Positions 309 through 63,321 of a stretch of 64,000 bases of DNA are shown piece after piece (position 1 is the first letter of the stretch; every line of letters starts with the position of its first letter). The notes under the pieces were generated by a model. The model saw only the letters and a list, made by a program, of their open reading frames with translations, did not search any database and was not told the DNA's origin. This DNA comes from Phoronis australis (Eukaryota > Animalia > Phoronida). The position numbers and the translations under genes were made by a program. The stretch spans positions 1,021,182 through 1,085,181 of the forward strand of contig NMRA01000079.1 of NCBI GenBank assembly GCA_002633005.1, in the 5' to 3' direction.

Positions 309-3300
309 GTATGGTGGTTAATCTGCTTAGAGCTAGGAATAATTCCTTATCAGCATACACGTGCGTTTGTGCACCCATGAGGTGCTGTAAATACACTAAT
401 TGATTTTGCATAGGCTTTCAAGGGCACTGAAGTGCCCGTGACGTACTGTAGCTTGCACGCCCCAAAATGGTATACAATGAAGTCTAACCCGGCTCGATTA
501 CATTATTGTGAAATCATCCTGATCTCATCAAAAACGTACAGTCGTGTAAAAATGCATTGTACACATTTTAACAGCTCTGCCATAATGTTTATTTAAGAAA
601 GTGGTCCATTTTTAGCTTTAGTGTCATAAGTTTAAATTTGATCGAAAATAAGGAAGTATTTGTAATTCAATCCGTGCGAGCAGACATCTACATGTACATG
701 TACGTGTAGATCTGAAGTTGTTCATTGCTGTTCCAGAACGAAGTGCTAGAGATGGCGCGCCGTATGAAGACGAGAGCTCCGAATGCAACTGCCTTGTCTT
801 TTCTTCAGTGGGCGGTGAGGAGAGCTGATTACCAAGCCAGCAAATCACATTTGCCGGTCCTCATTGTAGACGGGTATAAACTCACATCTGAGCTCACCTC
901 TTAGTGTGTTCATTGTTGTAGACTACTTTTGTGATCGATAATACAGGGATTTTCAAAATAGTTCACCATTTTAGAAAAGCGACTAAGATAGACGAATGTC
1001 GCCTACAGGGCGACTTTGAAACCTTCTTCAGAGATAGGAATGAGTTCTAAACCTTCGCGCTGATATACCAATCAAGAAAACTACTGGGCTTACATGTACG
1101 TCAGGTAATCAAGTCATTAATTTATGTCCAAAGTGAAAAGTGAAAAAGTCCTTCACACATTCCAGCCAATGTAATTGATTCTTCCAGTTCGACTGTCTGA
1201 TTTGACATTGGAAACAACAGCTGGCATTGAAGTAAAGGCTCCTAGCATGATATATCCAGAGTGCATTAATTTTCTTAAATTCTGCTTAGGCACGCGGCAA
1301 CAATACTATGTAACCGCCAATCAAATTTCTCTCCGTGCCCTTGGATTTGATTCCAAAACGCCCATTGTCAAAATAAACAAACTGGATCAATAATCCGTGT
1401 AATGACAAATTTTTCTCCTCTTCAGCGAAACGGAGTTTCGTTACTCCGCATACAAAACTGGGCTTTATGTGCACGCAGGAGACATCTGCAACCATCGCGT
1501 TGCTTTGGTGGAAGAAGGTCGCATACTAGACAGAGAAGGTGATCCCATATCAGACATGCAGATGGCGCATGACGTAGGGAGGACGTAAGTAACCTATTCT
1601 GCCAAAACAAACATCTAGTTTAACAGCAGATTTGGCTGTGCAGTCTGAGCATAGCATGCCTCAAGAAATGTCGTCTTAGTGTAAATCCGTCGTTCGTTAA
1701 AATTACGGATTGAATTACACGTAGATCGCTTCTTTCAGGAATCGATATCTTGTACCACTAGTCTAAACTTGTTCACTTCTCAGATTAAACGTGCTCACCG
1801 AGTTCGGAAAGGAATGGCAGATTATTTGAGCATAGGGGAATGCCACGTCATGCAGTTTGAGTATTTATTCAATACCTTTCCAAGTTGGAAGTCAAGTATC
1901 CAGGTTAAAGGCCTGTGGTCCGAGTTATAGACAAAAAACGTTTAACGCCATTTTAGCCGGGTTTTTTGGTATGACGTAAAGTTCATATAGAATATTACAT
2001 GGCGAAGTCGTTATCCCCCGTTATCTAGAGCCCGAGTGGATAATATTGTGGTATAAAAAAGTTATTAACTTTGAATACGTGCACAACATTTGCAAAAGTC
2101 GTTTTTAATGTTACCAACAAATGAGATGTTTACAAAGAATAAAAAGGATAGTCATTAAAATACAAAAGATATTACAATAACGCAACGCATGCGCAGCCAC
2201 AGGGGCAATACCGATACAAAATGCAAAGGTGTACTGCCGAAGGCGAAACGCGGGCGTACTGCTCTACGAGATTCTGAAAAGGACGAATTAGTCAGCAGAA
2301 AAAGCGGCACTACCGACAAACCGTGTACAAAAGCGAGTCGTTCGAAAGGTGTGAAACAATGAGGACAAGATTCAATCTTCGAACTCATAAAAATATTGAA
2401 AGTCTTTCGATGGACAAGTAAGTGTGCTGTTTGTAAAATGTTCAGTGACTCGTATGTACATATGTACGCTTCGAGCGTTCACTGCATGGGTAACTGATCT
2501 CAGTCGACATACATCAGACCAGATTTATTCTGAAGTTAATTCAGTCAGCTGTTCAGTGTTTCTCCTGTGATTTGTTGCCTTTACTTATACCGATTCACAC
2601 TGGCTGAGACTAATTAGTAATTTACACTTGTGAGTGCCAGGTCCTTTCATACTAACGTCGATCCGGCGATATTATGGGGATTTGCGGTCAATGTGAACGG
2701 TTAACTTCGGTCCGTGACCCAAGTTAACAACGCCAGTTAACTTCGCCGTTAACAGGTGACTTATCAGCGGAGCGCAGACGCTGCGGTGCAGTATGAACGG
2801 TCCTTGAACTTCGGTCCCATCGAAGTTATCGCCAGGAGGCACTGTTATCGTCAACGATTACAGAGCAGTGTTCTCGCTAATTGGTTGCTCATATTTTGCT
2901 CAATTCGAATTAGAACTAGGTTTTTGTGCCAATGATTAGCTCGTCAATATTCCCAAATTATAACATAGCGTGCAAGCGATGAATCAGCGCTACCTCGCGA
3001 TTACTTCGATGACAACAGCGCCAGCCACCGTTTACTTCGATGTCCGTTAACTACCGAAGCCTTTATGAACGGTTCAGTTAACTTCGCAGTTTACGCTCAG
3101 ACCGGAGTTAAGTCATTATGAAAGGGCATTTGTATTAGGATAGCAGTTGCCCTGGGGGAGGGGTGGGGGGAGTTTTTAGGCCGTGTAAGGGAGGTGTTGC
3201 CCACTCTCCCTCACATAGCTTTATTAGAAAGCTCGACTTGTCCCTGTTGGTCGTAGTGAGTACACTGGGTGGTGAGTTTTGGTTGACATGGCTGTCTACA

Positions 3301-9300: not shown

Positions 9301-12300
9301 ATAGCAGTCGACATTCAAGGACGATGGTTTTCGAAGCACACGTTAGGCCCTCTGTCCTGTGATCTGATGGATTGTGTTCTTGATAACGTGAGTCGCATAC
9401 TCAAACTCCGAAAAGGGTACAAAAGATAAAAGCAAGAACTTTTACCAACCTCCCACTGTCCCTAGCCTTTTATTTACAAAATCGAGACCATACCACCGAT
9501 AATACAAAGTCAACGAGTATGTTTTATTGGTTTCTGTGCAGTATCACGGTATTTTTAAAACGGATCATGTGAATTGAATGTTCGGTAACACTAGTATTCG
9601 CTGAAATGTGGCCGAAATCACATGGTCTAATTTAAAATGCTCTGCAATATCTCACGTAATCTTGTTAAGTCTTGTTCTTATCGAGGTCCTAGCATTACTG
9701 AACTCTACCCAAGTTAGGGTTATGTAACGCTAGGATCTGCGGAAGGTCCCACGAGGTTGTTTGATATAGTGCCGCGTGTTTTTAATGAGAACATGCTCGT
9801 AAAATTGATATTTCTAGTCGCGAGTCAGCTACATGTAGTGAGCTCTACCCTTTTTTAAATACAGATCGGTACTGCAATATAATTGAAGGTTTGAAACAAA
9901 AGCATTGCCAAAGCACCTACTGTATAAACCTGCGTGCAATCCAAAAAGCGGACTTTAGATTAAAACGGTCAAACCTTGATGGCATTTGTGCCCGCATAAT
10001 TACCGCTTTGTTAAACTAACATGTAGTCTGGCTTCCGTCAAGTATTACGATTCCTACTGTATGTTCTTTACAAGGCGTGAAATGATCTCTTTCCTAGGGG
10101 ATATTTTGGTATCAATTTGAGTGGCCTTTGATAAATCAAAATATTCTTGTTTGGTAACAGAACTGAGACCTGCCTTATTGAATATAAACNTAGCATTACT
10201 GAACTCTACCCAAGGTAGGGTTATGTAACGCTAGGATCTGCGGAAGGTCCCACGAGGTTGTTTGATATAGTGCCGCGTGTTTTTAATGAGAACATGATCG
10301 TAAAATTGATATTTCTAGTCGCGAGTCAGCTACATGTAGTGAGCTCTACCCTTTTTTAAATACAGATCGGTACTGCAATATAATTGAAGGTTTGAAACAA
10401 AAGCATTGCCAAAGCACCTACATGTACTGTATAAACCTGCGTGCAATCCAAAAAGCGGACTTTAGATTAAAACGGTCAAACCTTGATGGCATTTGTGCCC
10501 GCATAATTACCGCTTTGTTAAACTAACATGTAGTCTGGCTTCCGTCAAGTATTACGATTCCTACTGTATGTTCTTTACAAGGCGTGAAATGATCTCTTTC
10601 CTAGGGGATATTTTGGTATCAATTTGAGTGGCCTTTGATAAATCAAAATATTCTTGTTTGGTAACAGAACTGAGACCTGCCTTATTGAATATAAACTCTG
10701 GGAATGAATTACATACTTGGAGTGGTTCGGTCAGGATTTTTTTATGTTCTTTTTCAGTTTAGGTCTGCCAGGAAACCAGCTATCATGTTCCGAGGGCATT
10801 ATGGAATCCCGGGAGACGCATAAAGGTTGGTCCGCTTGTAGCAAGCAGAAATTAAAGAAGATACTAAGGTACTGAAATTAAACCTTCTACTAACCAAGGC
10901 TTTACATGTTACTTAAACGTTAAAGTATATTTGAGAACAGACGACTTGGTTTCTTTTGCTGACATCGCTTTTTGCATTCATGAACATAATTTAAAGTGAT
11001 GTCATTACCGACAACATCGTGTGCTACGCATGCGCAACCCAAGAACGGAAGCCTCAAGAGAAAAACCTGGTGACATGTACCATCAAGAGATGATTGACTA
11101 CACGAATCGAATAACTACATGTATTCAGATGAACGGAGGGCGGTAATAGTTCCCGTAGTCACAGTAGTTTTCTATATAGGCCTACACTGGACAATTAAAC
11201 GTACGAAATCCACGCATAAAACCGCAATTACAGATCACTCTTTTTAGAATCCTTTCTAATCCTGACCAAATCTCGACAAAATCTCCTCAGGTTTTCTATG
11301 TTCATTTTGTCGAAGTTGTTACAATTCATTTCGCAAGTCCATTGTATCAAGTGACATTTAATGCCCAAGCAAACTAGTAACGTAGATCAATTACACTGTG
11401 AACACTATTTTATTGCGACTAAAGGTCGAACAAACTTCTTAAGTCGGAGTTCTGTCGAATTTTGCATATACTATTTTGAAAAATACTTTAGACTGGGCTA
11501 GCCCAGCTTTCAGTTACATGAACACAACATCGCCTAACCCCACCTATCATTCACATGTTGATCATTTCGGTGTGACCGCAATGAAATTTATCTGGCAATG
11601 GAAACGTGTGACTTACAAAACAACACCAATGTGCAAGCTGCCGCATTGACTGAATCTTCGGGATTTTGACTGGATGCCTTAAGCATTGTTGGTTGTTATC
11701 AACATTTGTTGGCATCCATGCTTGATTACCCCTAACAACAGAACAATCATTTATCGTTCAAACTTGCATATTTATAAGAAAACGCACAGACGTGGATAAC
11801 ATCTGGTGGACAGACGTCCTATTTGACGCCTTACGACAAATTAGGGTAACATTTTAAGAAAAGGGACACATTAAGATGGCCGATATCCTGGCAGATAACT
11901 TGCGACAGCCTTTCGCCAATAGAGCCTAATCAAAAATCATTTAATTGGAATGTATACATTTAGGTATATCATTGCCAGAGTAAATTGGTGTGTTTTGTAT
12001 CCCAACACAATTAAGAAATAGCTACCGTGATTACACTTTCCGTCAATGGCGGAATCTGGCAAAGCTAGTGCCTCGTCTTCATTTTTCGCAAAGTAACCTG
12101 TTCTACGAAAAACAGCCTTGCTCTGCCATCTGATTCGTTGGCAGACGCTTAAAAGGAAGAACTGACTACGGTTTGTTTCATCATGCGTGTGGTAAAATAA
12201 TACTCCTTGTGATCGTAGGGCACGGAAGCATTGTCAAAGGGTGTGTACTTTTGACAATCATCCTCCACTAAATTTGTTCACAAGATCACTTTACTCCATT

Positions 12301-15300
12301 CCCAGCGACCCGTGGATATACTCTTGCTTGGAATATCAAGAAGGTTCCATGCCAGTGCCGAAGGCTTCTCTTGGCCTTATTTCAGCGGAGGACTTTGAGG
12401 CAATCAAACAAAACTGTAATGATGACATGGTTGCTACTCACTGGGTATACAAAGGCAAGTTCTCCAGGACAATTAGCTACACACTTCTCGCCAGACGCTT
12501 CTCGCCATGGGTAAGTCGGCTAGGGACACAGAGCATTGTTTGAGAATACATATATTTCGTGTTCACTAGTCAAAAATGCCCTTGTACCTCTTGGCCCCAT
12601 TCATGTTTCAGTGTTAAAGAGTTCCAAGTATTAATTAAAGGTGTATTTGCATGAACCTAACTATGCTAATAAATAGCAGGAACTAAACGTCAATCTATTT
12701 TAACTTCATATGCACTAAACGAGGTGCAGATGTATTCGTAGACACAATGTAAATGTAAAAACAAAAAATAGGAAATAGGTGGCCTTTGCACGAATGGCGT
12801 ATCTTAGGCGCTCGCATAGCCAAGGTCATGCACTGTTATTCCTCACAACCACGTCACGATAATTACTGGATTCGGTTGAGTGATTTACGGAGGATCATTT
12901 TCGACCCAAAATTCGTCCAAAAAAACATTTGGCAGTTTTCAACCTACTTCATATTCACATAATCGCTTGTTTCTAACTAATGTGACCAACTATGAAACAA
13001 TTACAGCAATAAGGAATTAGCGTGCATGTTCCACTTTAAATTCTAACCGTGTCAGTCTGTCAAACTCATTGCATTATTACGTGCAGAGCTACCTAAGATA
13101 GAACTGAGGGACCCACATGGATTATATGTGTGCTTGTATGCTACATCTAATTTCCCAACATCAACCTAAATCAACGCTTCCACTTACCAAGCTATCGCGT
13201 AGTCTAGTACACGTTAATCTTTAAGACCGGCCTCTTTCGTCAGTGGATAAGGGAATGTTCATGCACAGTGAGGGTATTTGACATCGCCACTGCCCGGGTG
13301 AGATTGTGGATTATGAAAACTAAATATGTCTTTGGAAATCGAACTCGGTTTTTCATCGGCAACAGACGAATTTAGAATGGTTTGCCAAAATCTTAGCTGC
13401 CTGAGTAGCACAATAACGGGTTGAATTGTATACATCACTGCACAATAGTGCTTAACTGGGTGGTCTTGATTTCCTGAAAAGAATAGTGTTGTTTCAGCGA
13501 GTGAGCACGTCACGCACGCTTGGCAGCCTTCATAAAGACAACTCGTAAAAATTTAGACGGGATGGGCCTTAAAATCTTTGCTACCAGGATACATGTTCAA
13601 GCAACCTGGGGCTTATGTAGAAATTTGTAGTTACTGGGATTAAAATTTGTTACAACTAAATGTGGTTCTCGACTTTTTTTAGCTGAGGTTTTCCGAGAGA
13701 TCGTTATCCGACATTCAGATCAATTTCAAGTCGCCTTGATGACTTTTGGCTTAGGTAAAACTGGCTGTATTGAAACAAGTCATAGTACGTCTTTTGTATG
13801 TATCGCTACATATATTTCACGCGCTTTGATTAGCAACGCCTGGACAATATCTGCAAGTGGACGCCGTGCAGACGACAAGTTGGCAGATTCAACCAACAAT
13901 TCTATTCTGCAACTCCAAGAAACACAGTGGGTTATCTGTGCGGAAAAAACAAGGTAATTACCTGTTTTCAAAACGGTGTCATATCCCGTTGCGCTGTTGC
14001 TTTGAAAATGTGATTCCGTTTTTTTTGCCTGCTCTGGGGTATCTAAAAGAACACTAGTGGGTGAAATCGTTACCAAAACACGTATTTTGTTTAGATAGCG
14101 TCCCCTAAATCTTAGCTTTTTGCATGGATTGGTGCGTTAACGTAGGTCAAGTGAACCTTTGTCCTAAAATTCTCCTAATTTTCGTTCGTATAGCCGCAAG
14201 TGGTCACAAATAGAAATTCAAATATAAGCAAGCAGTTGGCTCTACAAAGGATGGTGAATACCATAATGCACAATTTCTTGTGCTTACTACGCGCATATTT
14301 TCATATCCTCCCATTGTTAGTGTTTTCCACACAAAGTCTTCGGTCTTTTTATTTTTGCTCATTTTTATGGCATTCAGGACAATGGTGCGACCATTACATA
14401 ATATGTAGGCAGCGTTTTACATGTACACATTTTAGTACCATACTACGGATTGATCTAAAGCTCCGTCTGCGATCCCCTCGACCCCCACACCCTTTGACCC
14501 TCTCAATCCAATTTACTGTGCACAATCTCGACTCTATCTGAAAATACAAAAAGCGCTGACTTGCAGGAACAACGAGTCGGGCCGTGAGTTCGACTGACTT
14601 TCCCCTTTTTGCAATAAAGAGAGTAGATTTGGCAAGTTTGAAAGCCAAAAACGGAAAAATAAACTCGACCTAATCAAACTAAAGACCTACCAACGTTACA
14701 AATGTCGTCCCTGGCAGAGTTCAATCGTCTCGTCTGCTCTTCAGTGAATGATAGATTTAACCTTTTACGTAGAGTGCGAAGAACCGACAAAAACGTAATT
14801 TCATTAGTAAATACAATTTAGAAAACAAACTGTTGACTTAAAAGCATCTCTACTTTACATGGAGTATATTATAGACGAGTATACAACAGAAAGCAAATAA
14901 TAAAAATGTAAAATAATATACATTCACGATAACGTATCTCTCACTAAGTTTAGTAGAACTGGGCCATTGGTAACCAATTAAGAATCTATTTCCGTCGCAG
15001 CGGCAGCACAACCACAATTCGTTATTTCAGAACACGTTCTCACACCAATTTCTGTTTGTAAGCACCCACCTGAGTCAGAGTAGACTCTCGTGTAGTTATG
15101 TCTTTTGGGAAAGTAATTCAGTGTCGTATTAATGATTATAAAATGTGCAGGAAGCGAAAAGATACATCTCTTGCCACAGGTCGTTGGTCAAGGAGGTGTG
15201 GGTCGTGGGTTATGGGTCATGGGGTTGTGGATCGAGAGGCGTGTGGGGGTTGCGAGGGCTTTAGAACAATCCGTATCATATATTCACCGCCTTTTCTTCT

Positions 15301-19228: not shown

Positions 19229-19271
19229 GGGTCGCCAAAATTGCCAAAACATGCTACTATTCGACACTCAA

Positions 19272-19274
<3 letters not shown>

Positions 19275-19352
<78 letters not shown>
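19275..19352. repeat. (TA)n microsatellite
   Basis: Two TA runs separated by cacagtg. Confidence 0.95.
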
Positions 19353-27500: not shown

Positions 27501-30500
27501 TTATAACAGCTGTGCAGCAACAAGTGCAGTAGTCTTACCAATAGCAGTAGCCCTCCCAGTACTTGAATCATTAGCAGTAGCGAGTAGCAATTAGCATCCT
27601 ATGTTACTTTACAAGAACAAGCCTGTACGATATTGTAACTGAGGCATAACATTTTCAAATAGCAGGAGATATACCAGTGGCAATAGCCGCACTATTGAGG
27701 TAGGCTCATCGATATTAGGAGTCCTACAGTTAACAGTAGTCACATCAATATCAATACCTCTAGCAGGAGACTTCAAGTAGCAGTGGACATACCCTAGCCT
27801 CATCGGTAGCAGGAGCCCCAGAAATATCAGATGTTAAACCAGTACCAGTAGCTGCACCCGTTACAACAGCAGTAGTAGCAGCATCACTAGTAACAGTATA
27901 ATGAGAGGTTATAGTGGCAGCCATATTGGTTGTGGTCGTGTGTTGTACATGTACCTGTAGTGCCCAATTAACAGGAAGTGGATGTCAATTAGTACTAGTA
28001 GTAGTGGCAGTGGTCTTATGTTTTGTCTTAGCACTATTTGTGTTCAACGACTCTATCCATGTTTATCACTGCTGGTAGCTGTTTGTTGTACAGTATAACT
28101 GCATCTTTACATGGTTTCTAGACTCCACACCCTTGTACAATTAGCCTGTACTTAAAGAGTTTTCACCAGGACCTCAAAAAGTATTTTATTAATACACCCT
28201 GATAGATTTAATAGCCTTTAGTATACCTACTGTAAAGAAACAAGTCAAAAATTAAAGAAACAATCTGTTATCGCGGTTGTGCGTAATGGGTGGAAGGCCG
28301 TCTCAGCCGTCGTTGTTTTATACCAGTACGCTGATACCGAGGAGTTTTGAGGACAGTCCGCGTAGAACACGTGGAGAATTTGTCGCTCAAACTGGTGACC
28401 CACCGCTCTTATTTTCTAAGCCCCAGACACCTGTTATGATGTCTATTCAGCACGCCCTCTGTATTGAAGTAGTGGAAAGGTAATTCCTAGCATTACTGTC
28501 TCAACAATAGGTTGTTGTTAGTACCCCCAATTTGGTTTTCTCTGACATTTGCTGAGTTATAGCCTGCAACGCTGGAGAGTAGGTTTAACTTGGTACATTA
28601 TAAATATTACAAAATGACTAAAAAGGTTTACTTGTGTTTATCTTCACAAAGGGCCACTTCCCAAAGGAACGATAAGTTTCATATTTGTTTTCTTTATTTA
28701 ATTTTTAATGCTTCTGCCCATTTGTTGTTTTTTTTTCTTACCGGGAACGGGTTGATAACTTGTTATCCAAGTTTTGAACTTCAAGTGAAGTACCAAAACA
28801 GAGGTACATTTTGATCGACAGCTACACTTAATTAGTTGAGTTCATTGTGAGCCCATCCCTAAACTTACCACATCACAGGTACACTAAACATTTCACGTGT
28901 CATTAAAGTTTATTATCTACTCGAACTCAAATCATGAAATATGTACAAAAGTGCAAATATGGCGATTACCAAACTGAAGGTTTGCAATCGCTGGACAATT
29001 TCGGTGGCACTGACTATTTAACTATCAGTCAGTAAGAAAAAATGAAAAGCAGGCACAACAACTGTTTCCTGGTCAAAAATCTGATTAAACGAGATTGAAA
29101 AAATATTAGAAAATGAATCCATGTGATATTGTTAACTCTGATCAGCGTTTGTATATCCACCGAGTACATGTATATCAATACGCGCGGTAGTTTATCTTCA
29201 ATCGTACCCAATGGTTGTAGTTTCTAGGTTATTAGTTCATCGATTTTTAAAAATCGAAAACCGTACGTGGTTGGTTTGTTTCCAGCTGAATACCGCCGTG
29301 GTGTTTGTTTATAACAAAATTGGTGGTTCGTGCATTTTGAAAATTCGGCATTATGTACAGTCAGAAATGTCTAATACAGTTTATGGTCGGATAATTACAT
29401 TTAATTGGGCCTTGCTTGCATTGGGCAATGCGGTCATCACAATTCTGCATGATTCCGGCGCCGCGCGGTGAAAATTTTCGCATATTCTTAGAAATGCGTT
29501 ACTTCCTTCTAAGCTTTCTACGCGTTTGTGAAGGTTGTAGTAACATGACTGAGAACGTCTCTGCATTCGAATTTCCTAAATACATGTACCTGAAACGGAA
29601 TACGTTTGTACTCTGCACGAGAGTGTCGAGTGTGGAAAGAGCGATTCAGTTGGGAGAAACATTTTGTTCGCCTGCACCTGTTCAAGGAATCGCGTTTCGG
29701 GCAAACACAGAAGCGACGTTACTGAGTAACGTCCTTTATCGTAACTTACGATAAAGGACTCGACACCTTGTAAGTGTATAAGCAAAATAACGAACAAACT
29801 TGCTTCCATTCTAAAGTGATCGAGTGATGTCAGGCCCTCGACGCCGGTCCACATCTAGTCCTACGACACGTAGTAGGCTTATGCATTACGTTTAGACCGT
29901 GCTCATTCCGTCATAGCAATGGTGAATGTGAGTGACCCAGCTTTACTGTGACCTATATGTATGCCCCTGATTATTAAGAATCTAATTTTGTGAACATTAA
30001 CTACCCCCTGGTTCAATTGGTTGTGCCTCGCATATGACTGCAGTATTTCTCCTGTAAGTGGGTTTGGGTTCATACTGCCTCAAAGCTGACGAAAGTTGGT
30101 ACATGTAAGTGGGAAATCGAATTCATTCTCTATTCTTCATTTACTCGAGTATGATGCCCGTATTCACTCTCTCCCACTGTCTTCTCCGTCTGCATAATAA
30201 TTGTCCACTTCCCGTTCAAAATCGCCCTCGCCTTCTTGTCTGCTGTTTTCCGCCATTGCAGTTGATTGTCAAGTGACCAAACGTCTCCCCCCATTACATC
30301 AATTGGTGGAAAAACTTGGAAATAACTAATTTTTCTTCAAAATAAAAAATGGCGATTATTCGGCATAAAAAGTGCTTATTTAATTTTGCATTAGCAAACT
30401 GAAATCTCAAAAACTAAGAAAATGCATGGCAGGAACTCTTTAAGCAATGCATTTCATTTGAGTGAGCACTTGCAGTCCGCACGCATCAACCAGGTAACCA

Positions 30501-36092: not shown

Positions 36093-37277
36093 TGTTTCAT
36101 TTGGTTTCATCAGTTGATTACTTACATTGTATGTCACACATTGTGTATCTTAATTGACAATAACGCTATAGTCCTACAAGATAAGGCATATCGGTAGATG
36201 TGTTTACAGTCTAAGTTCGTATTCAAATACGTGATAGTTTGGAGACCTATACAGAGCACCAACAGGTGCCAAGTTATGACGTACGTTGTTTTACACTGCA
36301 ATTGTCTGGTAGTGTCTGATATAAGGGTCAAAAACATGTTCAGACAATTGAATGAGCTCAAGCAGGTGGCCTCTGAATTTCCCAGTGAGTAGGGACATTT
36401 CTCTATCACTCCACCAGATGGTGTGTTAATTGGATGTCAATGGACACATCGACCTTGTTGCGTCACATGTTTTGTAAATGTAGCCCTCCGAATCTCTGCG
36501 CTAAGCAGCTTAAGGTGTCAAACCACAGGAATATAAAGTAATTTTTTTCAGATGAGATGTCAAACTTCAAGAAGTTACTTAATAAATGTCAAACCTAAAC
36601 GTATTGCATTGATATACACGAGCGCATCCTACTGCATGTTCTTACTGTAATCATGGCGGGTATTGCCGAGCAAACCGAACAATACTGTGGTGAAAGGATT
36701 AATGTGACGTTTCAGAGGCCCTCACATACAATGTACGTGTTTTTTTACTGGCAGTCCGAACCCTACTAAACTTGCAGATGTAAAATTCTACATGCGGACC
36801 CAGTGCGTGGTCAACTCGAACATACGCTCGGGAATTACAGGTTATTCCACAACCACAGGTAAAATATAAAGCTCTCTACATACAAAATACTCGAAAGCTA
36901 TCGATATACAAGGAGAACGAAATACAGACAGTTTCAGCTAAAGAAGGCACACGCGAAATAAAACTTAAATAAACTGACACTCACCAACATCTCTACAAAA
37001 TGGCAGATACTAAGAGTGAACGTAAAAACTTGACCAAAAAGAAACAAACTCCATATAGTAACATGAAAGAAAAAATAAGTAAGTTATACAAAATGTAACC
37101 TAACACAATCATCCGTAGCACTGCGCATGCGGTTTATAAATGTCTGAATGAGTGCTTCGGGCAATTGTGAAAAATATGTACATGAATCACAGGAGTGATA
37201 TTCATTGAGGTATGACGTTAACGTGGAAGTCCGTATGGTATTCCGTGTGTGTCATTTGAGGTTTCTCACAACCTAAC

Positions 37278-37358
37278 TTGGACTTAGCCTACCGTCCATA
37301 TGGATTGGACTTAGCCTACCGTCCATATGGATTGGACTTAGCCTACCGTCCATATGGG
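37278..37358. repeat. 27-bp tandem repeat x3
   Basis: ttggacttagcctaccgtccatatgg(a/g) three times head to tail. Confidence 0.95.
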
Positions 37359-37937
37359 TTGAATTAACTTGCATATACAGTTGTATTGCATTCATACAAA
37401 CGTGAAGTAGACAAGAATGCCCTCGAAATTGGAAACCAGAGCCGTGTTAAGTGCTTGATAATCTCCTCACTCTCTTCTATCAACAGTCTTCTCCTGGCAA
37501 CTAATTTTCTCGTACATGTATATACCGACGTTTAACCTAAAAACAAACCCGTGCACGCATTTTAAAGCCTTCCTATGTATAAGTTTAAGCCACCGAGGGC
37601 GCTCGCTTTACTACGGAAAGCGCCACCTCGCCGCTCAAGAACAGATTGGGAGGAAGTCTAACTTTCCGATAAAATATTATTTGAGTGCCGAAATTCATAC
37701 TACCGGTTGTTTTAAGCACTATGCCAAAACACAAGTAAATATTGCTGTAACTCAAATAATAAACTAACTACACCAAAGACGTGGCCGAATTCAAAATGAT
37801 AAATGCGGTTCGTGCTTCCACCGTGGACTAGGAAGAATGAAATCATGACGATTGGCAACAAATTGTAGCAGTATTACATTTAATCACACAGCAGTGTTTC
37901 CTTGTAAAATTGTGTGTACACAGGGCGAGTATACTCG

Positions 37938-39109: not shown

Positions 39110-42100
39110 GTAAGTGCCCGGCACGTCAGAGATGATTTTGTTTAGCGATCATGACATTCGGCTTTACTAATGTTAATCAAGAAACCATGGTATATCAAAC
39201 TTTACTACTTTTGCAATACGAGACTGTGCCAATTACTTATGAATTGTCTTGATACCCATTTACTTTTATAGAAAGGTGTGCCTCACCCGCACATTAAATG
39301 AGTTGATTTGTATCAATACATATGCCTCACTGTATAATGTCACGTTCCAATACACGTCCGTGAACAGAAACGCATCAGTAGTTTGCTTTCTCACTGGCTG
39401 AGTTTTTTAAGACGTCAGGTAATCGCTGCATACATGCACGTGTACATGTACCAATCTTTTACGAGCAGGGCAGTTAGACTTAGTAAAAACGCCAGTTTAC
39501 TCCAGGTGCACGATTTCGATTGTGCCAAGTGACATTACGTCACAACACTTAACTGCACTGATGTACTTGAATGCGTAGTTTGACTGGGTAACGTGTCGAG
39601 CGAGAATTTGAACAAAAATATTCATTGGAAATAAACAAAGTAGTACTGTTAATTTATTGAATATGTGGGACTAGACAAATGAAAATTGACCAGCTCAATT
39701 ACAGTGCGAAGTATAGACTCTCACTCAAACGACATTGACACAAGCGATGGAAGGGGCGACGGAATGCGACGAATCGTTCGATTAGCGCTTTTCTTCTCCA
39801 AAACCCTGATGGACTCTTGGGTGAACAAAAAGAACAGACCAGCCACCGACTTAACTGACCATCTGCAGTCGAAATTTCTGCAAAAGGTAATGGAGTCTGG
39901 ACCTGCAACTTCATTGTAGAGAAAAATTTAGCAATGCATTCACTGCTTGAGACTTATGGTTTCAAAAATCGTCCAATGCCGAAGAGGGTTCTCATTTCAA
40001 AACTGATCAATGTCTGTTTTAGCTCTTCAACAATTTGTTTACGGGGTCTCGGTTTGGAGGACACGAGGCCCTTTGGAAAAATGTGAATGCGTCCTCTCAG
40101 CTATTTACACGTACACGTATAGGAGCAGCCTGTACACTCATACATGTATGAGCTAGTTCAAACTCACTGCGTGTACATGAATGATAGTGACTGCCACGTG
40201 ACAATGAAACAATTCATTCAGGCAACACAAGAGTTTTTCACCTGCCAACAACCTTTAAGATGTCTATCAGCAGCAAACTGAGGTATCAACAACTTCAAGT
40301 CGCAATTTCGCCTTTCAACGAAGTAGAACAACCAACTTCAGAACAAGTTTCAGTGCGGACCACTGAACGATTAACTACAATACGTTTAATTACTTTTCTC
40401 AGTTAACAAAGGCATCGTTCCACATTTCAGTTTAACAAGCTGTGGGCCGAACCTCAGTTGGGAGCAGGGATCGACATTAGATTTGAGATTGTAAATATCC
40501 GTTACCTGACGGCCCGTGAAGAGGTAATCTGATCTGTTGTCGCTCACAAGTCACGCCAGTATTAAAATTGTTGTTGGTGTAAAATCAAGTGACATTGAAC
40601 ACGAGACAACGGTTTTGGTTAATGTGACATACATGTAAGACCTAAAACAGAAAATTGGATTGAAACGATCCCATTTCACAATTAGTGAAAAAATGATAAG
40701 CGCATCAAATTTAGACATGATTTATAGAAATTAATTTGAAAACTCTCAGTCACTTTTCATAAAACAGCTTCCTGTGTCTGTTGAAAATCACTATAAAACA
40801 TACATGCATATGTAGTGCCACAGAACCAAGAATGTTAACGCCGTATTAATGCACATGTATAAACGTACACATGTGTCCTAAATCCAAGGCAGATATATAC
40901 ATGTACATCTACTGTTCATTTGATTCAATAGAAATGAGTCCACTCTATCTTTTTTCTTTAATATAGGCAGAGTTGAAAAACCTGCAAGGAAATCTGAGAC
41001 CTGCCAGAGGAGACTCCGCTGGTCTAGTGGCCTTTTGTGACTGGGCAAAAAAACAAAAATCCGGGGAAGACCAGTGGGATATACCAGCGTATATCGTAGA
41101 TAAGTAAGTTTTTGTAAGCTTTAATATGTTTCCTTTCATGCAGACAGAGGGGTTGGCAGCTGGACGCCAGTTTCTTTAGTTACAAACACTTTCTTAAAAT
41201 TGTCACCAATAGATTAGATTTGAAGGTACATGTACATGTAGCCTGGCAGTGAGAGTTAAACATGCCGTCGTCATTTTCTACCAAATCGGTGATACATGTA
41301 CACTGTAACTGCGTGTAAATCATACGAATATCTACATATAGTGCACACGAGTGCCGTAATATCCATCAGCACATTGGAAAAGAGCGGGTATTATTTCCTA
41401 CTCTAACTCTGGGCGGGGAGAGTCTCCCTGCGTACATTGTGCACTTATAAAATGTTTATCACTTCCCGTAAATCTATTTTGTTGGCCGACAAGCAAACTA
41501 TTCTAGTCTTGTGACAATAACTGCAGCGTAAAAGATAAACTGTAAGTTTTGTCATTTTCAGTGAACGTTAAAAATTCCACGGTGAACAATTTTCGAATAG
41601 TTGTGCCAATTTCGACTAAAAATTTAACAATTTTAAATTGAAACTTGAAAATTGCTAAATCATGGGCAATCCTTTTATCTCACAGATCATCGGACTCTCG
41701 CACGTGACCTAATTGGCCACCTCGAGACTAGTCGCGAGAGTTTGCACTGAAGATTTCCGGCCACCTACTCGACTGAGCTTTGATCGAATCAAACCAAATT
41801 TCACTTCTCATTTTCATTTTGTTTTATTTTTCATCAAGTGAGACTCTTGAGGTACGGTAAACTCAGCGAAAAACCTCGCCAAAGTTAGTCAGCAAACCCC
41901 ACAATTACATGTACACTCAGTGGTCATTTCTCATAAGCGCCGACCTGCCGGGAGTAGTTTGTCCTCTGATGTCTTTTTAGCTCCAGTCCTACAGTACATG
42001 TAGAAGTACTTTTGACAAGCTATTATACATGTACTACATGCCATGAGTGTTTCAACAAGACAGATGCTGGTGTTAATTTTTTTATAGTAAGAAGCTACAT

Positions 42101-42283
42101 TTGGCCTAGATAAAAAGTTAAGGCCCTGAAACAGGTGTGTTTACTTAACTCTCAAGCAAATTACTCACAATTCCTGAGCTAAGTGTAAGCGTGGGAGACT
42201 GCGTGTTTGTGGGTGTGTGTGTGCGTGCGTGCGTGTTTGTGTGTGTGTGTGTGTGTGTGTATGTTTGTGTGTGTGTGTATGTT

Positions 42284-42314
<31 letters not shown>

Positions 42315-50458: not shown

Positions 50459-53400
50459 TTCCTTTCTTCGTAACAGAAAAGCAATGATAATAAACCCATG
50501 ATACATTTGCTAAAGATGAATAAAGAAAAGTGAAAATGTGTCAAGATGTAAATTAATTGTGTTAGTTGCACCTGCAATCTAGTCGCGACACCACTTATGC
50601 TCCATCACAAATAGTCCAAGTCGGCAAGAAGACCCACTTTACCGCGAATTGATTTTTAAAAAAGCTTATTTGTGTACCGTTACGCAGGTGTTTATTATAG
50701 AGAAAAAAAACGTAGTGTGAGAGAGATAAAAAACATATGGAACATTTTGCTCAGGATCTGAGGTCAGTCCACAGGGGTACATGTACATGTAGGTTGTTTA
50801 CACAACTGTTAACTAAGACCCAGCATGAAAACTTCTGTATGCCAGGCCACAGAAATTGGTGTTCTTCAATGGAACTATTTTAAAGTGTGCAGAGAGTGCA
50901 CATCTCTACCGCTAGCTTTTTCTTGGTATTGATGCTTGGTGATATAAATTTATTTATTTCAGTATCAGGTTTCCCATAACAAAAAATCCAAGTATTGAAG
51001 GATTATTTCACTTCTTTGTTAGGGAAGTCGAAGGTCGCGGGCGGAATACGTGCACATCGCAGGGTAGACAAATTAAAAGAAAAATTGCTTCGCATGTGTC
51101 GTTTTTTACCGTGAACAGAGTTTACGCTTTTGTGATTTGTACGTGTATCCTGCTAGATACAAAGCAATCGAAGCTACATGTACTCTTTCAACGTCATTTC
51201 ATTTATAAACTTCGTCAAACGGATTTCAATGCGTGATAGTTCATTCAAAGCTAATGCTTAAATGATGCTTATTCAAGACAACCTGAACTACATTAAAACT
51301 TTGAGTTCAGACGTACACCATCACCTAAATATCTGCCATAGTGAGTGACCCTGAGCTAACTCTTTCAGTTTGGGTTTTCTGTAGTGATAACGCAAAAACT
51401 CCCACAAAAATAAAATCAAATTATTTGTAAAATAAGGCCAATACAGTCGTGGCTGTAACTTCAAAATTATTGGTATTTTAGTGACATTTTTCATTTTTCG
51501 ACTGACAGAACTACTTTTTTTTAAATTGTTGAGTGATACGGAAGGGTATAGGCACAAAATGCTCTGTTGCGTATTTACAGACTTGAGCCGTCATATCTTG
51601 AAAATACCTATAGTTATTTAACACAGCACTGTCCTCAGACATAGTATAGTCCGGTTACCTATTGTCGTCAGGCTCCAAAGGTCGTCCGCCATCTTGTTTC
51701 GCGTGCAGCGCAACCATGCGGGACTTAGCGTTCCAATTTGGAGTGCTCGTCTGCACGTTAGGTACTAACTTATCGGAAGAGACATGTATCAAAGTAATGA
51801 GACAAAAATCGGTGAGTTTACCGATTGTTTTTTAAAACCACTTAAAAATCAGTAGATTTTACTAATACACTTTTTTGTGCGTTTTCAGAAGATGTTTTCG
51901 AATTTAAATTTTCTTCCGACGGGACACAAAACATGATCCAGGGTTTGTTTATGCAATGTATCTGTTTGTCCCAGGCACTAGTAGGATCTAGAAGGCCAAA
52001 GGAAAAATCCGCAGACAAATGCGATACGCTGGGTTCTTAACATTTTTGCCTCACGCATTCACCATTAAACTGCATTGAAATGTTGTCCAATTGGCTTTTA
52101 TTGGAAACCACAGTGCAGAGCTCAACATCAAAGCTTCAAATCGAGTTTATGTCAATAAAAACAGGCTGTTGCAATTTTCATTACTTCGTTGGCCTTTTTC
52201 TGCATGTTTCTCAGTTTTTACAAAAGGGGGCAGCATATGACGACCTTAGGTGTCACAATAAAATGGCTGCCGAAGGCAGTGCACATTTGAAATAACTCGG
52301 CACAAATTAAAGAAAACTTCCGAATCGATGAATGCGGTATATCTGTGAGAGTTAAATCGAATCCTATTCAGATCATAACTTTGAAGTGGAATAATTCGGT
52401 GAGTACAACAGCAAGTCGGTTTTATGCTTAGGCGGACGACCATTGGGTTCCCGAGTATACATATTGTAACACCAAACACCATGGCTGTACAGTAGTGGGT
52501 GGGAAAAGTTATATGTAAATCAAACGTGTTTAAGAAATCAACCTCAAAATTTAGGGGAACTCAAAGGTCTGAAAATAGCTGAAACGGAAGTCTTACGGTT
52601 CGCCATGTTTTTAATTGTGGTTCCTAAAGATTTCGAATTTCTGCGTATGGCAAAGCACGTCTCCGTGCGAAGCAATATACGGCTGTGCACTCACATGCAG
52701 ATAACATGCAGATCTATACAAATAAAGCCCTACTGACAGTAGTAACATAAGCGGTTATATAGATTGAAGCACCGCAACTACGACAAGAAAAAAACATGCC
52801 AGTTACAGTGGCATTCACACGACGCAAGTCTGATTTTACACAACAAAACTCTGCCAATTCCTAAAGCCGTCAAGAGAACATAGACTATCACCGCATGTGG
52901 TCCCTCGTTACCCGGCGAGTCACGGTTTATCCAAGCTTCGTACAGTTATGTGCCTCAACTCTTCACTTGACCTATCGCCAGGGTTTTGAGTGACGGCTTA
53001 ACTGACCATTTAAAACTCATCATTCTTGACACACCTTCGTTTCCAAGCCGCCATTTTACCCGACAAACAACACGTTGCCGGGTAACACTTATTGTTCGTT
53101 AGTCGACATTACGCAAGGAGGCGCAGCTTCCGAATTGGTAGCATTCACCCAATAGCCGGGCTTTACGCAATCGACACAAGGAGTTCTAAGACACGCAATG
53201 ATTCGGATGCAGCCTGAAAACGCGCGTAAATGGTAATAAAATATCAATAATGATAATAATGATAAAAATAATGACAATAATTAGTAATATCCAAATAGAA
53301 AGGACAAATATAATTGTTATAATAATTTCATACTCTGTTACAAAGTAATAGTAATAAACATCACAATAATAATGGGAATGACGATGGTTATAAAAACTAC

Positions 53401-56715: not shown

Positions 56716-56885
56716 AATTGAGAACGCTTGAAAACTCACAGCTTAAAGACACGTGACCGATTGAATTCCCAGTTTGAGATAAAAAATTAGATCCTGGACC
56801 ATGGTTGGATTGTAAAAAAACGTCGTTTTAAGTAACTAGCATTTGAATTGTGTCAACATAGTAATTTCCAGGCCACTCTGTTAAT

Positions 56886-56922
56886 ATGCAGTTGTTACCA
56901 GTGGCAGTATTTCTAGGGACCG
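56886..56922 (+). CDS. Gene D coding exon 1 (signal peptide)
   Basis: MQLLPVAVFLGT-g|gtgagt; 37 nt; acceptor tttccag ends 56871. Confidence 0.82.
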
Positions 56923-59900
56923 GTGAGTACGCGTATGAGGGTTATACGTGAAATTTACAAGAGCAAACATTAGAATGGAATAAATTTTAATAAGAAGAAC
57001 GTCATGGTATTTTTTAACAATTTTATTGTGTCAGTATATATTGTGAATAAATGTACATGTACTTGAAAGTCAATTGTTCGTTAAAATTTGAATAATTGCA
57101 TTTGAATCGTTGACCACGTTTGCCTTTTGCCTACTTGAATTGTGAGAGCAAATTGCATCAACTGAGTTTTAAGTCACCAGTGCGCATAATATGTAACGAT
57201 TAAGGGATTTTAACAAACCCTTAAGTTCAAAGTCTGCGGCTTTCATTTGAATACAGACACCAATCAGCTTTGTTTGTTGCATGATATACCACGATAGTGA
57301 TATTGATGTTGAGGTAAAATTGTGAAGACAGTTTAATAAAACTCGTGCCCTTATGATACACGTCCATGCATTTTTTGCAGAAGTCGCATTTCTATCTTAC
57401 AAACGTGAAACATTCTAGAGAACGAAACATACCTCAATCAAAATGTCGTCCCCACATTATGCACACGTGTTACTCAGTTTCAGTGCAAGGCCGGAACGAT
57501 GACCAATACGGTGCCAGAACACGCACAGGCGACGGTGCAGGAATGCAACGGGTTGCTAGGATTGCCCTTTTCTTCTCCAAAAGTCTCATAGACCCTTGGG
57601 TAATCAGAAAGAGAAAGACAAGAGAGGAATTAACGAGCTATTTGCAATCTAAGTTTCTGCAAAAGGTATTGTTGTTGTAACGTACGTGTACAAGAACGCT
57701 AGATTTTCAATTGCTTCTCTCGAAAACATTTTTCGAAGCATCTGCCAACACCCAGTGTTTAAAACGCCACATATTTTCTCAGTTGCTGATCCACTATTTT
57801 AACTTGAAAGCAAGAGAAAAGTCAAAGTCTCGACACCAATTTTAACCAAGCATCCGCCTCAAAAACAGTAACGAACAAAACCGATTAGCCTATAGCCAAG
57901 TTGAGAATACATGTACACTGGTACAGCGCTGAAGAAAAGAACTAATTTGTAGCAAATATCTATTTTCGTATACGTAATACTTGTGAATGACGGAACTTAA
58001 AGCATTAAACTATGTCAGGGCAAATAACAAAATCGATGTGCTTACTGAGAATCCAGTAATTATGTCATATTGGCTCAAGTGAAATACCCCAGCATTTGCG
58101 ACCCGCATATAGAAAACGTGGACTGTGCAGATTATCTCCAACATACTGTCGTTATAAACTACTATTGAAGCATTTGCACCCTGCATTCACAAAATAACAG
58201 ATCATATTTAAGTTATACGCGGTGTTTGTTTGATGTAGGTGCCTTTCAGGTGTCAACTTACATGTATCTACATTGTATACAATTCGCTGTTGGCCAACTG
58301 TGATGCCTGAAACTAGTGAATTTCTGTTTTCTGCGCAGTTCACGTAGTCAAGGCCCTGTTAATCGCTATCACATTTTAACTTTTAAGTTACTTAACCATT
58401 TATTTCAGTTGAATGCCTTATGGGCAGAACCTAAGTTGGGAGCTGGCATCGATTTGAAGTTTGAAATTGTGACAGTACGTTACATCACAGCGAATGAAGA
58501 GGTAATCAACAATTGATATTTAATACGCAGCTGTGTAATGCCAGTGTTTTAATGGCAAGCAATGTGGAGTATGTTATCAAATAATATAATCCAAACTACA
58601 CCAAATCGATCAAATTATTTGTGAATATTGCACAGTGTGGCTCTTATATATTTCCCGTTTATCGACCCTGAACGGGATTTCGAGGAAATACCTTCCAATT
58701 AGCAGGTAGAGCGACCTGAAAATGACATTGCGCGTTTCTTTTCTAATTGACTCAGAATCTCGAGCTTCCGAGTTAATTTTAATCTCGGGACTTCAAGATC
58801 ACGACTAAGGACTGTTGGAAAAATAAACTGCAGACGTGGTCAGACCCCGCTTTACTATCATTATTAGCGGCACCTTCGGCGTTTGTAGTCAATACTTAAA
58901 ACTAGCGCGTATAGTAACAATTATTCAAACATTGACGATGTGACAGGTTGAAAAATATCTGAACCAATGCAGCAACATGGTTATAGATTCGGGCACCATA
59001 AATGTGTCACTAATGGCTTAGTTGTGAAACGAAAACTGTGCAAATAATTCTTCCTGCTGTCCATACAGATGTTTTGACAATGCAGCACACCAGAAGACTG
59101 CGACAAACTGACGAATATTATCTGGGGATCTTGAGATCCTAAGATAATTTGGTCAGGATCTCGAGATCGCGAGATAAATATGTCGGGACCTGGGATAATT
59201 AAAAATAAATGCGCGATGTCATGTTTGGACCACTGTACACGGGGGATAACTGAAAGTTTTATTATCTAAATGTTGACTGAAAGCTGTGTGTAATTTTGTC
59301 AATAGGCGGAGCTGCAAAGAAGACAACGGCAACTCAAACCAACCAATGGCGGTTATTCTGGTGCAAAGGCATTTTGTGATTGGTCAAAAGAGCAAATGAC
59401 TTCACGTGATCAGTGGAATATACCAGCTTATATCATAGACGGGTAAATCTGCTAAAACTCATTGAAGAGTGTTCGTCTTCTCGACACTTTCCGAATAGTG
59501 CGAGTAAAGACCGATTACTGACATGGGAAGGCATAGGAAGCAACGATTAAACAACCTAATAGATACCCACAGTTTTGATGGTGGTCCCTTTAAAGAAAAA
59601 TTACTTAGAATTTATACACTGCACCTATTTTTATTTTTTATTTCAGTCCAACAAAAATTCAGGTTAGTTGAACATTAACATAATTGCTGAACATACGAGC
59701 TTACATTGGAGTGCCGTGCAATTTACTCTATGCTTGTTAATCATTACGTTTAAAAGGATACGGCAGGCAGATTTCAACGCCCGCACCCCAGGGCGTGCAT
59801 TCGGCATGAGGCAAGTGTGCGACAAAAACTGCGTTGTAATCGAGGGCAGAGTCGCTGACTGGAGGTTCGAGCCGCTTTTCACAAATCTTCTTGCACACGA

Positions 59901-62900
59901 AATAGGTCACATGTAAGTAAGTTGTTTTTGTAGTTTAGTGCCTAACGTTATGCTCTTACATGAAGTAGACTTGCTCTTTCTCTCTTGCTACACGAAATGC
60001 ACACCTGGATTCTGTACACCAGTTTCTCTTCTTTTTCTCAGAAACTTGATGACTTAAAGTTTTTGCACATGTAAAATATCATATTGCAAAGTATCCAACA
60101 CACATGCACAACTGCCCTGACAACTGCAATTATATAACAGTGTGCACATGTACCCTTGCATTTCTACTGTATGTGCAATATAACAGAGCCAATTATGAAA
60201 GACCTCCATGTAGTGCAGATAACAATCCCGGTGTCACTAGTTAACGGGCTACCTTAAAATAAGTTTGGTGTTGAGGGATTTGCCTGCTTTTAACGAGTTG
60301 AGGAAAGTATATGGCGAGAATACGATGCATGTAATGTCACAAGCTTTGGTTGAGAGAACAGTGTGTTTCAGAACTGTATCAGGTGTGTTGTTAATACTGC
60401 GCTAAGAACATTCTTACATGTACGTGCAGTGTTAGCGACCAGAAAAATGTAGCCAAAGTTGCTTTTTCTCATTTAAAATACGCGACAAAATGTCATGTAA
60501 TCTCCACGACATCCTGCTTCTTAGCAAGGTCCTGGAGTTACTGAACTCTACCCAGACATGTTGCCATTGCAGTTTTGGCTTTGACCACCCACCTCCTGGG
60601 TGTAGACAAGGGATCATGTGGTCTCCAGGAACAAGTGATGAATGGTCTACATGCATAAAGCAGAAAGCGCTGGAAATATTCGGGTTAGTCATTTCCACAT
60701 GTAAGCCCTGTCTACTTAACTCTGATGTTTTCGTATAGCTACTTTGTTATCGACTGTAGCACACGTATAAATAATGTTTAGAATTTTTAATTCGGACACG
60801 ACAATCAGAGCATGTCAACAATGGTCTAACAGTTACATTGTGTGTCGTATTCTACTGCGTGTTGGACGAAAGACCCTCCTCTCTGACACAGCGCCACCTG
60901 TACTGAAATTGGCCCTGTGGAAACATGATGAACACACGGAATTGCGTGTGTGCGGATCAGTGCGCATGCCCAGGTCGGAAGATTACCGATTACATTGCCC
61001 CCACGTTCACACAACTTTATGCATTTTATTTATTTAGGCTTAAGCCACTGGATCGAGGATCTCTTGATTTTGTTTACTTCCAACACTACACGTTTTAATA
61101 AAACGCAACTACTCAAGTTAAAGATGATCGTCATACTTGATAACTGTAAACTGAAAGGGGATTCCCAACTTTCAACAAATGGGAATTACTGAATGTTATG
61201 ACGCCGCTTTCTTTAATTTAACAAATGAGAAGCCAACACAAGACAATGCTACCTGTCGTAGCACTGTGAAAGAGTGTAATAAGACACTAACACGATTGCA
61301 CTATTTTCTTGTTTGTGAGAGGTGGTGAATTCTATCAAAATTAAACCCATAGACATGTTTATTGGGACAATCGCGCTCCTAGTGACGTGTCCACAAATGT
61401 GTTCTACAGTTGCAATATATATGGACAATTAAAACTGCAGTATGTATTTATTCATAAAGTGAACGAGTGTTTTGTTGAAGCAACCCCTGGGTTTACCCGT
61501 GTATGGCTTACCAGGAAGGGATAATGCCGGCATCGACTGTTCCGCCTGGGAGAGTTTCTGAAGAAGACCTGGCGGTGATTAAAAAGAACTGTCCCAAAGG
61601 TGAAGCCGGTGTCCACTCAGGCTACAGCGGGGAAATGTTCTTCGAAAATGGCTACCTTGACTTATATAAGAAAGCGCCTGAGTGGGTAAGCAACTAAGAA
61701 CTGAAAATTTACCGGACCACGATAGTACCCGAGTGAATGTACGTTTTGTGTTCTGGTATGATGAGTCACTTATCAAAACAGCACAAGGATTCCAATGAGC
61801 AACGTCGTCATTATTTGTTTAATTACACCACCACGTCACGATCGAGGTTCGCATATCAAAAAATTTTGTTCCTCTGTAAGAATGGCGTTCTACGCTGCAC
61901 CAACGTGCCTGTTCGTACGCGTGTTACGCATATTTTGATGCAAGTGTATTCTAGTTTCGCCTACTCCAATTGTAAAAGAACCTATCGGGGTACTCGATAT
62001 CCCTCAGTTTGTGATTGACCACATAAGCATGGGGGTAAAACACTTTAACAAGTTAAGGATGTTGTCTACGCCAAAAGAATATTGTTCCTCGTGTGCATTT
62101 TTGAGGAAGCATTACTTTAGTGCCGACTTTGTTGATAGAACGGCGATTTAGATTGATCACATAGTGACACGTGCTACTATACGAAACTGATGGTGCAGTC
62201 CCTGACTATAATAAGAACCTTCGTAATCTCACGTCAACAACAACTACGGAGTTTTCTTGAACATTGTTAGGAAATAACAAATATTGTTCAAACAACTATC
62301 CTAGTTATTATTCCAGTGGCATGAAAAGAATGTTTGCAGATGGTTGCCTTGTCGCAGGGATCACCAAGGGAAGCCGGTCTTTTACGGATTATCTCCCCTT
62401 ACCGGATACAGATGCGGCGTTAACAAGGTACAGGCATTAACACTGTATATATTTTTATTTTAGTTATTTAAACAGCTAATCTATACATCAACGGGCATTG
62501 CATCCGGGCTTACAGTAAGAACTACACGTAGAACACGACTCACATGTAAATTTGGCCACCGACAGATCTACCTGTACTGTACATGTAGGCCAAGGTGCCA
62601 TTAGGAAGGAGGGCCAATTTACGTTACTTTAAGCGCGTTAGTAGGGGGAAGGCTCTACTCAACAGAATTCCGGATAAAATTTGTTCCTGGCCGGTTTCGT
62701 GTTGTTAGTCGATAGTATCTTAAGTGTTCACCAAGTGCCCGAAGCATATCAGATTTTGCGAGGGTGAAATCCTCTTGGTCACCTGCAATGGTCTGGGAAT
62801 AGCAGGTCTACTTGCAAATGGACGGTTAAGAAGAATCAAATTCATTTCTTAGTGAATACTCGGACCACGAATAACATGATATGCATTCGGGCGTTCTAGT

Positions 62901-63321
62901 TAGCTTGCAACTCGTGTACTTAGTGTTGTACCTCGAAAAGCATCTTACCCTGTGTACATATGATTCAGTAGTTCGTGCACGTGATTCCGAATCAGTGATT
63001 TGTTGTTAATAATTGAAATTGTTAGGTCCAGTGCCTCTAAAGAATGCAGACATTTTGCATAACCCGAAAGGAATCTGGGAACAAACCGAGAACAAGTTAT
63101 TGGTAATCTAAGATTTGCAGACCTACTCACGTTTTCAGATATGCCAAAGCGAAACGAGGTGTATATCCGCTGGTGAATCAGGATGTGGAAGGATTCGCGA
63201 CATTAAAGCGACAAAAGGGTCATTTTCGTCATATAACTACATGTATGACGGACGAATGCATTACCTTCCCAACTTAAAGTGCGCTTGGCGAATTACAGTT
63301 CCCATGGGACAGCGGATCAAG
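56886..63321 (+). CDS. Gene D (3'-partial): secreted ADAMTS-like zinc metalloprotease with Cys-rich and CUB domains; join(56886-56922,57478-57665,58409-58501,59306-59442,59757-59912,60573-60683,61481-61685,62317-62427,63139-63321), exon 10 beyond window
   Basis: 9 exons in open frame; MQLLPVAVFLGTVSVQG signal-like; HEIGHIFGFDH, GIMWSP. Confidence 0.9.
57478..57665 (+). CDS. Gene D coding exon 2
   Basis: SVQGRNDDQYGARTRTGDGAGMQRVARIALFFSK...FLQK|gtattg. Confidence 0.88.
58409..58501 (+). CDS. Gene D coding exon 3
   Basis: LNALWAEPKLGAGIDLKFEIVTVRYITANEE|gtaatc. Confidence 0.9.
59306..59442 (+). CDS. Gene D coding exon 4
   Basis: AELQRRQRQLKPTNGGYSGAKAFCDWSKEQMTSRDQWNIPAYIID-gg|gtaaat. Confidence 0.9.
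59757..59912 (+). CDS. Gene D coding exon 5 (HExxH)
   Basis: IRQADFNARTPGRAFGMRQVCDKNC...LLAHEIGH-at|gtaagt. Confidence 0.92.
60430..60555. mobile_element. Copy of the 34641-type MITE family just upstream of gene D exon 6
   Basis: aaggtcctggagttactgaactctacccag end matches 9684-9711. Confidence 0.5.
60573..60683 (+). CDS. Gene D coding exon 6
   Basis: FGFDHPPPGCRQGIMWSPGTSDEWSTCIKQKALEIF-gg|gttagt. Confidence 0.92.
61481..61685 (+). CDS. Gene D coding exon 7
   Basis: NPWVYPCMAYQEGIMPASTVPPGRVS...KKAPEW|gtaagc. Confidence 0.92.
62317..62427 (+). CDS. Gene D coding exon 8
   Basis: [37 protein letters not shown]|gtacag. Confidence 0.92.
63139..63321 (+). CDS. Gene D coding exon 9
   Basis: ICQSETRCISAGESGCG...[32 protein letters not shown]|gtaaac; 183 nt (6 nt longer than paralogs). 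Confidence 0.92.

Follow-up and report, generated by a model that had tools for sequence, protein, structure and literature searches.

The palindrome TACATGTA recurs throughout the 64,000-base stretch of DNA analysed here (the window), and the question is by what route a single eight-base word could become so abundant. Exact matches numbered 64, about one per thousand bases. Removal of one duplicate (10331 repeats 9830) and three nested copies left 60 independent loci, distributed as follows:

689..63245, unstranded: TACATGTA field, 64 matches at 60 loci, with starts at 689, 695, 1091, 3297, 3307, 4912, 8274, 8554, 9830, 10331, 10419, 11116, 14418, 16070, 16357, 17167, 17465, 21207, 22485, 24105, 27174, 27946, 29165, 29581, 30100, 31067, 33561, 33949, 34609, 35509, 35676, 37513, 39443, 40141, 40630, 40898, 41227, 41233, 41293, 41906, 41995, 42026, 43323, 43401, 43412, 43948, 44094, 44315, 45625, 45781, 46751, 49883, 50778, 50784, 51175, 54100, 54556, 55827, 57054, 57908, 58259, 60415, 62580, 63238

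Expected counts were 1.86 from base composition, and 1.90, 2.33 and 2.43 under Markov-1, Markov-2 and Markov-3 models, the last trained with motif cores masked. The earlier note had estimated about 60 copies and a roughly 30-fold excess; this 8-mer count against Markov expectation, run on the window, bears it out (64 against 1.9–2.4 expected, a 26–34-fold enrichment). No other 8-mer of the window was as frequent. CATG occurred 352 times, with TA on both sides in 64 cases, while the next most frequent flank pair accounted for 11. Fourteen other palindromes of the form TA-xy-y'x'-TA occurred 0–5 times each; TATATATA, a microsatellite, was set aside from this comparison. Because these flanks and sister palindromes are rare by comparison, the excess is specific to TA-CATG-TA as a whole. 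Two longer forms were also raised, TACAGTGTA (5 vs 1.0 expected) and TACAATGTA (6 vs 1.5 expected), each with p about 0.004, uncorrected among about 20 words. The palindrome marks about 1.3% of TA sites.

Four sites could be paired with a counterpart in which TA-CATG-TA is replaced by a bare TA. The sequences concerned, apart from the coding case given further below, are:

10419..10426, unstranded: filled site whose partner copy has a bare TA
9918..9919, unstranded: empty TA, the counterpart of 10419
9690..10696, + strand: two near-identical copies, 9690-10189 and 10191-10696, around a single N at 10190
29165..29172, unstranded: filled site within a high-copy repeat; most other copies of the repeat show the bare TA
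28470..29320 (limits approximate), unstranded: high-copy dispersed repeat that polarises 29165, with loose ends at 28471 and 29143
9830..9837, unstranded: filled site at the end of a short repeat copy, of which a diverged copy near 44650 has a bare TA

CATG was absent within 15 bases of all four empty sites, and the flanks differed from pair to pair while the insert was identical in each (4/4). The insert is therefore fixed rather than copied from its flanks. These comparisons establish that TACATGTA arises by a fixed six-base insertion at TA, hereafter a scar. The remaining 56 of the 60 loci lack such a counterpart, which counts against extending a footprint reading to all of them.

The pairs differ in what they contribute. 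The copies at 9690-10189 and 10191-10696 differ by two substitutions in 500 bases and by the CATGTA indel that the earlier note had described, and are probably two alleles written in tandem. This pair had been selected in that note and gives no direction, which weakens it as support for a footprint. The same layout was seen around an N at 47791, where 47012-47790 and 47792-48570 (779 bp) are 98.8% identical with no indel. This overlap, too, probably holds both alleles in tandem; two exons are present twice as a result, which would lead gene models astray.

The site at 29165 was polarised with reads. The surrounding repeat reached a depth of about 370–1150 in X5, a run from another sample, against about 1–6 in single-copy bins, a roughly hundredfold or greater difference. 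Six bases at 29164, a gap equivalent to removal of CATGTA, were omitted by 688 of 1011 X5 reads; the remaining 323 need not all be filled. Four contig rows starting at 29163-29166 likewise lacked CATG. This case was one of the 12 indel rows listed, out of 45. In the X1-X3 contigs the deletion carried only 9–17% of summed depth, and depth is not a measure of copy share. With the coding case at 63238, this site is firmly polarised as derived. The pair at 9830 is the weakest of the four: the diverged copy does have the bare TA reported in the earlier note, but matches the empty form at only 22 of 30 bases. The repeat end may have been hit again at this position in another copy (60415), but the alignment there is unclear and the case was rejected. 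Two further length variants were noted. Between 38698 and 42119, sample S1 carries an allele longer by a net 6 bases (present in two records and missing from one), which is left out of the pair count, its letters not having been seen. At 30343, some copies of a mid-copy repeat have an extra TA, which could be a bare target duplication.

The fourth pair lies in coding sequence, within a set of related genes:

63238..63245, + strand: in-frame six-base insertion adding Met-Tyr in a CUB-domain exon
63136..63325, + strand: host exon, start of the CUB domain (PF00431), in the last of four tandem metalloprotease-like genes
12300-17900, 26100-36100, 39700-50460 and 57470-63330, + strand: four tandem, intron-rich metalloprotease-like paralogues

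The four paralogues combine a zinc-protease-like HEVGH/HEIGH motif with a cysteine-rich stretch and a CUB domain, and are 40–85% alike by exon; such genes make an animal source probable. Single-exon protein searches returned no homologues for them, and protein atlas scores were all under 0.8. The exon at 63238 reads YNYMYDG against YKYNG, YKYTE and FRFNG in the paralogues, so that Met-Tyr is missing in 3/3, in agreement with the in-frame +6 difference described in the earlier note. A scar whose length is divisible by three, and which reads through without a stop in all frames, can persist in exons, where it would add two residues: Met-Tyr, His-Val or Cys-Thr, depending on the frame. Depletion of TACATGTA from exons was not significant (1 of 60 loci in 5,111 mapped exon bases vs 3.2 expected, p 0.17, with incomplete exon models).

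Insertion was not random among TA sites. With the insert removed, C adjoined TA in 49 of 120 flanks (26.8 expected, p 6e-7) and A in only 16 (38.6 expected), while T at +3 was raised (54 vs 38). GTAC carried a scar at 8 of 211 sites and TTAA at 0 of 459. Scars thus prefer gTAc and avoid TTAA. Being palindromic, the scar has no orientation, and its spacing resembled that of random TA picks (CV 0.91 vs 0.98).

Once present, the copies appear to decay. Words one transition away from TACATGTA numbered 53 against 15.3 expected, spread evenly over the four half-site positions (12/15/15/11), and transversion neighbours 44 against 30.9. Other alternating pyrimidine-purine 8-mers, two to five changes away, were enriched only 1.1–1.3-fold, so the neighbour excess largely reflects decay of TACATGTA; those six to eight changes away, mostly C/G-rich repeats, were enriched 1.6–3.7-fold. 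Perfect and once-changed copies exceeded expectation by about the same amount, the pattern predicted for long accumulation. Words with two mismatches showed no excess (388 vs 402), and this counts against a long steady state, which would predict one. If gain and decay were nevertheless balanced, the rate would come to one fixed scar for about every 130 substitutions, which would be a notable class of mutation. The "very frequent" cut-and-paste activity proposed in the earlier note would not be required, as slow, long accumulation would fit too.

Some copies overlap or adjoin others:

689..702, unstranded: nested double with starts 689/695 and one-mismatch units on both sides
41227..41240, unstranded: nested double with starts 41227/41233
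50778..50791, unstranded: nested double with starts 50778/50784
39431..39450, unstranded: perfect unit after two possible decayed units, one transition each

All three nested forms listed in the earlier note are real, the second beginning at 41227 rather than 41228. Their number fits independent re-hits (1.8 expected, p 0.26, sequential simulation). In-phase neighbours within two mismatches were in excess (21 vs 11.9 expected, p 0.003), which suggests that old scars or scar-like flanks mildly attract new ones.

What could write such an insertion? Most TACATGTA copies are probably footprints of the standard route by which IS630-Tc1-mariner (ITm) elements insert and excise. An ITm-type DNA transposon with CA...TG ends would insert at TA and duplicate it; upon excision, the break would be end-joined in germline repair, and CATG and a second TA would be left behind. 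According to a passage of PMC8151067, the non-transferred strand is cut slightly within the element during Tc1/mariner excision, and the few terminal bases so left behind become the footprint upon end-joining. The dominance of the +6 class would follow if both two-base overhangs were kept. Alternatively, with ends of the form CAT...ATG or CATG...CATG, the overhangs could anneal to each other, a variant that predicts the first bases of the parent. Other classes known from model elements were scarcely represented, and this counts against the footprint: the +4 class was barely raised (58 vs 47.3, p 0.07), and the +5 class (TACAGTA) only 1.7-fold (22 vs 12.7). Also on the opposing side, such breaks in C. 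elegans germ cells are described in part of PMC13148408 as repaired mainly by TMEJ rather than NHEJ. The portions of PMC5521727 and PMC7386202 examined give no footprint or end sequences. The palindrome thus likely behaves like an ITm excision footprint, with the standing of a candidate member of that class pending its parent. The Tc1/mariner proposal of the earlier note stands as to insertion, a fixed insert, target preference and neutral-looking decay; its CA...TG element is what the window did not yield.

Known elements offer partial likenesses. The same eight letters, taCATGta, are cited as a rare Tc1 excision footprint in Caenorhabditis elegans (Eide and Anderson 1988, via a passage of PMC3520976), and likewise comprise the TA duplication and two bases of each end. 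There, however, the class is rare, whereas here it is dominant, at about one per kb, inherited and decaying, and no Tc1-like element was found in the window. The Sleeping Beauty footprint is given as cag or ctg in excerpts of PMC8151067 and PMC5224488. That element shares the TA target, the terminal bases left behind and end-joining repair; its footprint is +5 and derives from one end, in contrast to +6 from both here. A Sleeping Beauty-type footprint was rejected on this ground, the dominant filler being four bases and TACAGTA raised only 1.7-fold. Passer, of the pogo group, targets AAGTACTT, leaves footprints of 0–4 bp and is present in Cnidaria and Annelida, according to the available text of PMC9976928. 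Passer and the scars alike favour TA within a g-TA-c core, followed by T at +3, but the T at +2 of Passer is unmatched here (29 vs 35.8). Passer was rejected as the source because its ends read CCGTA in supplement rows of PMC9976928, and CC...GG ends would give TACCGGTA, which is absent (0 seen vs 0.46 expected).

No TA-CA...TG-TA element stood above chance among 18,075 end pairs in the 64-kb window; the best pair matched at 15 of 20 bases and was itself composed of scars. No full-element allele at a scar TA was found among the best 12 of 45 indel rows and 15 of 246 joints, and no transposase family among 15 reading frames scanned in the window. Since elements may leave far faster than scars decay, the lack of a parent in 64 kb is a gap rather than a refutation. 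One TA-flanked element was found:

14444..15275 (body 14446-15273), unstranded: TA-flanked 828-bp element with inverted ends CGGATTG, 16/20 first bases matching between ends

TA-flanked inverted-repeat elements therefore occur here, but the ends of this one are not CA...TG. It has C-rich subterminal repeats, and similar ends lie at 661-676 and 1704-1719. A metagenome locus (L001) retrieved by a repeat-end pattern scan was discarded as a chance match (35% G+C, 0 TACATGTA in 15,655 bases).

A different reading of the same absence is a parent-less route, in which insertion is real and recurrent, with an element inserted and removed at once or CATG added directly at a staggered TA cut. The 60 loci with no parent element in 64 kb would suit it, as would the prominence of one footprint class far above the others. 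However, a scar would be expected to last orders of magnitude longer than an element, and the standard route would then allow zero or one element per 64 kb. We know of no enzyme that adds CATG directly, nor of one that inserts and removes an element at once. On balance we regard the parent-less route as unlikely.

It is very improbable that selection has maintained TACATGTA, or favoured its gain, as a transcription-factor site, even though the word has such a history. It is bound by PsMyb37 in Phytophthora (in an excerpt of PMC11134190) and named a preferred Irx homeodomain site (in part of PMC3520976), and gene spans of the window hold 40 matches in 32.2 kb, a higher density than the 24 found in the other 31.8 kb. 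Selection on a binding site, however, would hardly account for a word that arises as a whole six-base block, including in a coding exon and in repeat copies. Spacing is random, decay is even over positions and transition-biased, and the motif at 63238 is not common to the paralogous exons. Some scars may have been co-opted later as factor sites.

Two further routes are yet more improbable. Replication slippage, or fold-back copying of neighbouring sequence, could build the nested, degenerate six-base chains and the in-phase neighbours noted above; against it, a CATG that could be copied is missing from the surroundings of all four empty sites, the same insert sits in different flanks, and perfect period-6 pairs of other sequence occur at only 32 of 60,871 positions. 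An origin by substitution could take the form of CpG deamination of TACGCGTA, or of a methylation-linked iterated palindrome like cyanobacterial HIP1, which is gained by substitution with length unchanged. TACACGTA/TACGTGTA are indeed enriched (11 vs 2.8), as is TACGCGTA (2 vs 0.5), and a TA-flanked element with CG ends is present. Yet all four comparisons show a six-base length difference, where substitution predicts none. CpG observed/expected is 0.93 in this window of 40% G+C; across 32 bins its correlation with motif count was rho -0.34 (p 0.056). The three other transition neighbours are enriched as much as the CpG one, and the copy at 10419 is perfect within a pair separated by so few substitutions. 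An assembly or sequencing artefact from adapter or enzyme junctions can be set aside almost entirely: the window is a scaffold of short-read type joined at single Ns, but contigs from X1-X3, perhaps the source sample itself, run across many motif sites with 0–7 gap letters over 0.5–3.6 kb, and neither the decayed neighbours nor the in-frame exon case fits.

Returning to excision by an ITm element, footprints of this kind have so far been known from single loci and assays. The accessible text of PMC3520976 and PMC11134190 describes the same word in Phytophthora, as motif-1 or AM-20, as very abundant and reads it as a transcription-factor site, the footprint idea being mentioned and dismissed; unlike there, insertion is shown here by filled and empty pairs. 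Scars would confound motif discovery, since this word has been interpreted as a binding site for Myb or Irx factors. Among the literature matches listed, which lie mostly outside subscription papers and bioRxiv supplements, none gave an account of TACATGTA as genome-wide scars in animals. What the window adds is polarisation from reads, a coding insertion, a target-site table and a pointer to an anomaly in the lancelet.

In the Chinese lancelet, a passage of the PMC4284660 supplement describes polymorphic 6-bp indels as excessively common, with no other size contributing as much, and offers no explanation. Their length is that of the scar, although the passage gives neither sequence nor cause, and the text of the supplement contained no hits for CATGTA, TACATG or footprint. 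The scar process would explain this excess, and scars offer a direct test of the published peak. More speculatively, and with clear reservations, CATGTA at gTAc-like sites might outnumber every other multi-base insertion in many invertebrate genomes. Its maker would be an undescribed ITm lineage, either one with annealing ends (CAT...ATG or CATG...CATG) or one that never remains in place for long. Such a process might account for the lancelet peak, write two-residue insertions into proteins, seed Irx-type sites genome-wide and provide a neutral clock of past transposition.

Other repeats were also recorded in the window. A short inverted-repeat family of very high copy number is represented at 34636-34794, with related copies near 9575-9714, 9715-9855, 44540-44690 and 60430-60560. 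At one point in the family the summed contig depth in X1 reached about 700,000, where single-copy sequence has about 41. The ends of the family do not read CA...TG. Minisatellites of 34 bp and 27 bp, and TTA/TTG, GT and AT microsatellites, lie at 56113-56357, 37278-37361, 27005-27164, 42203-42351 and 19275-19352.
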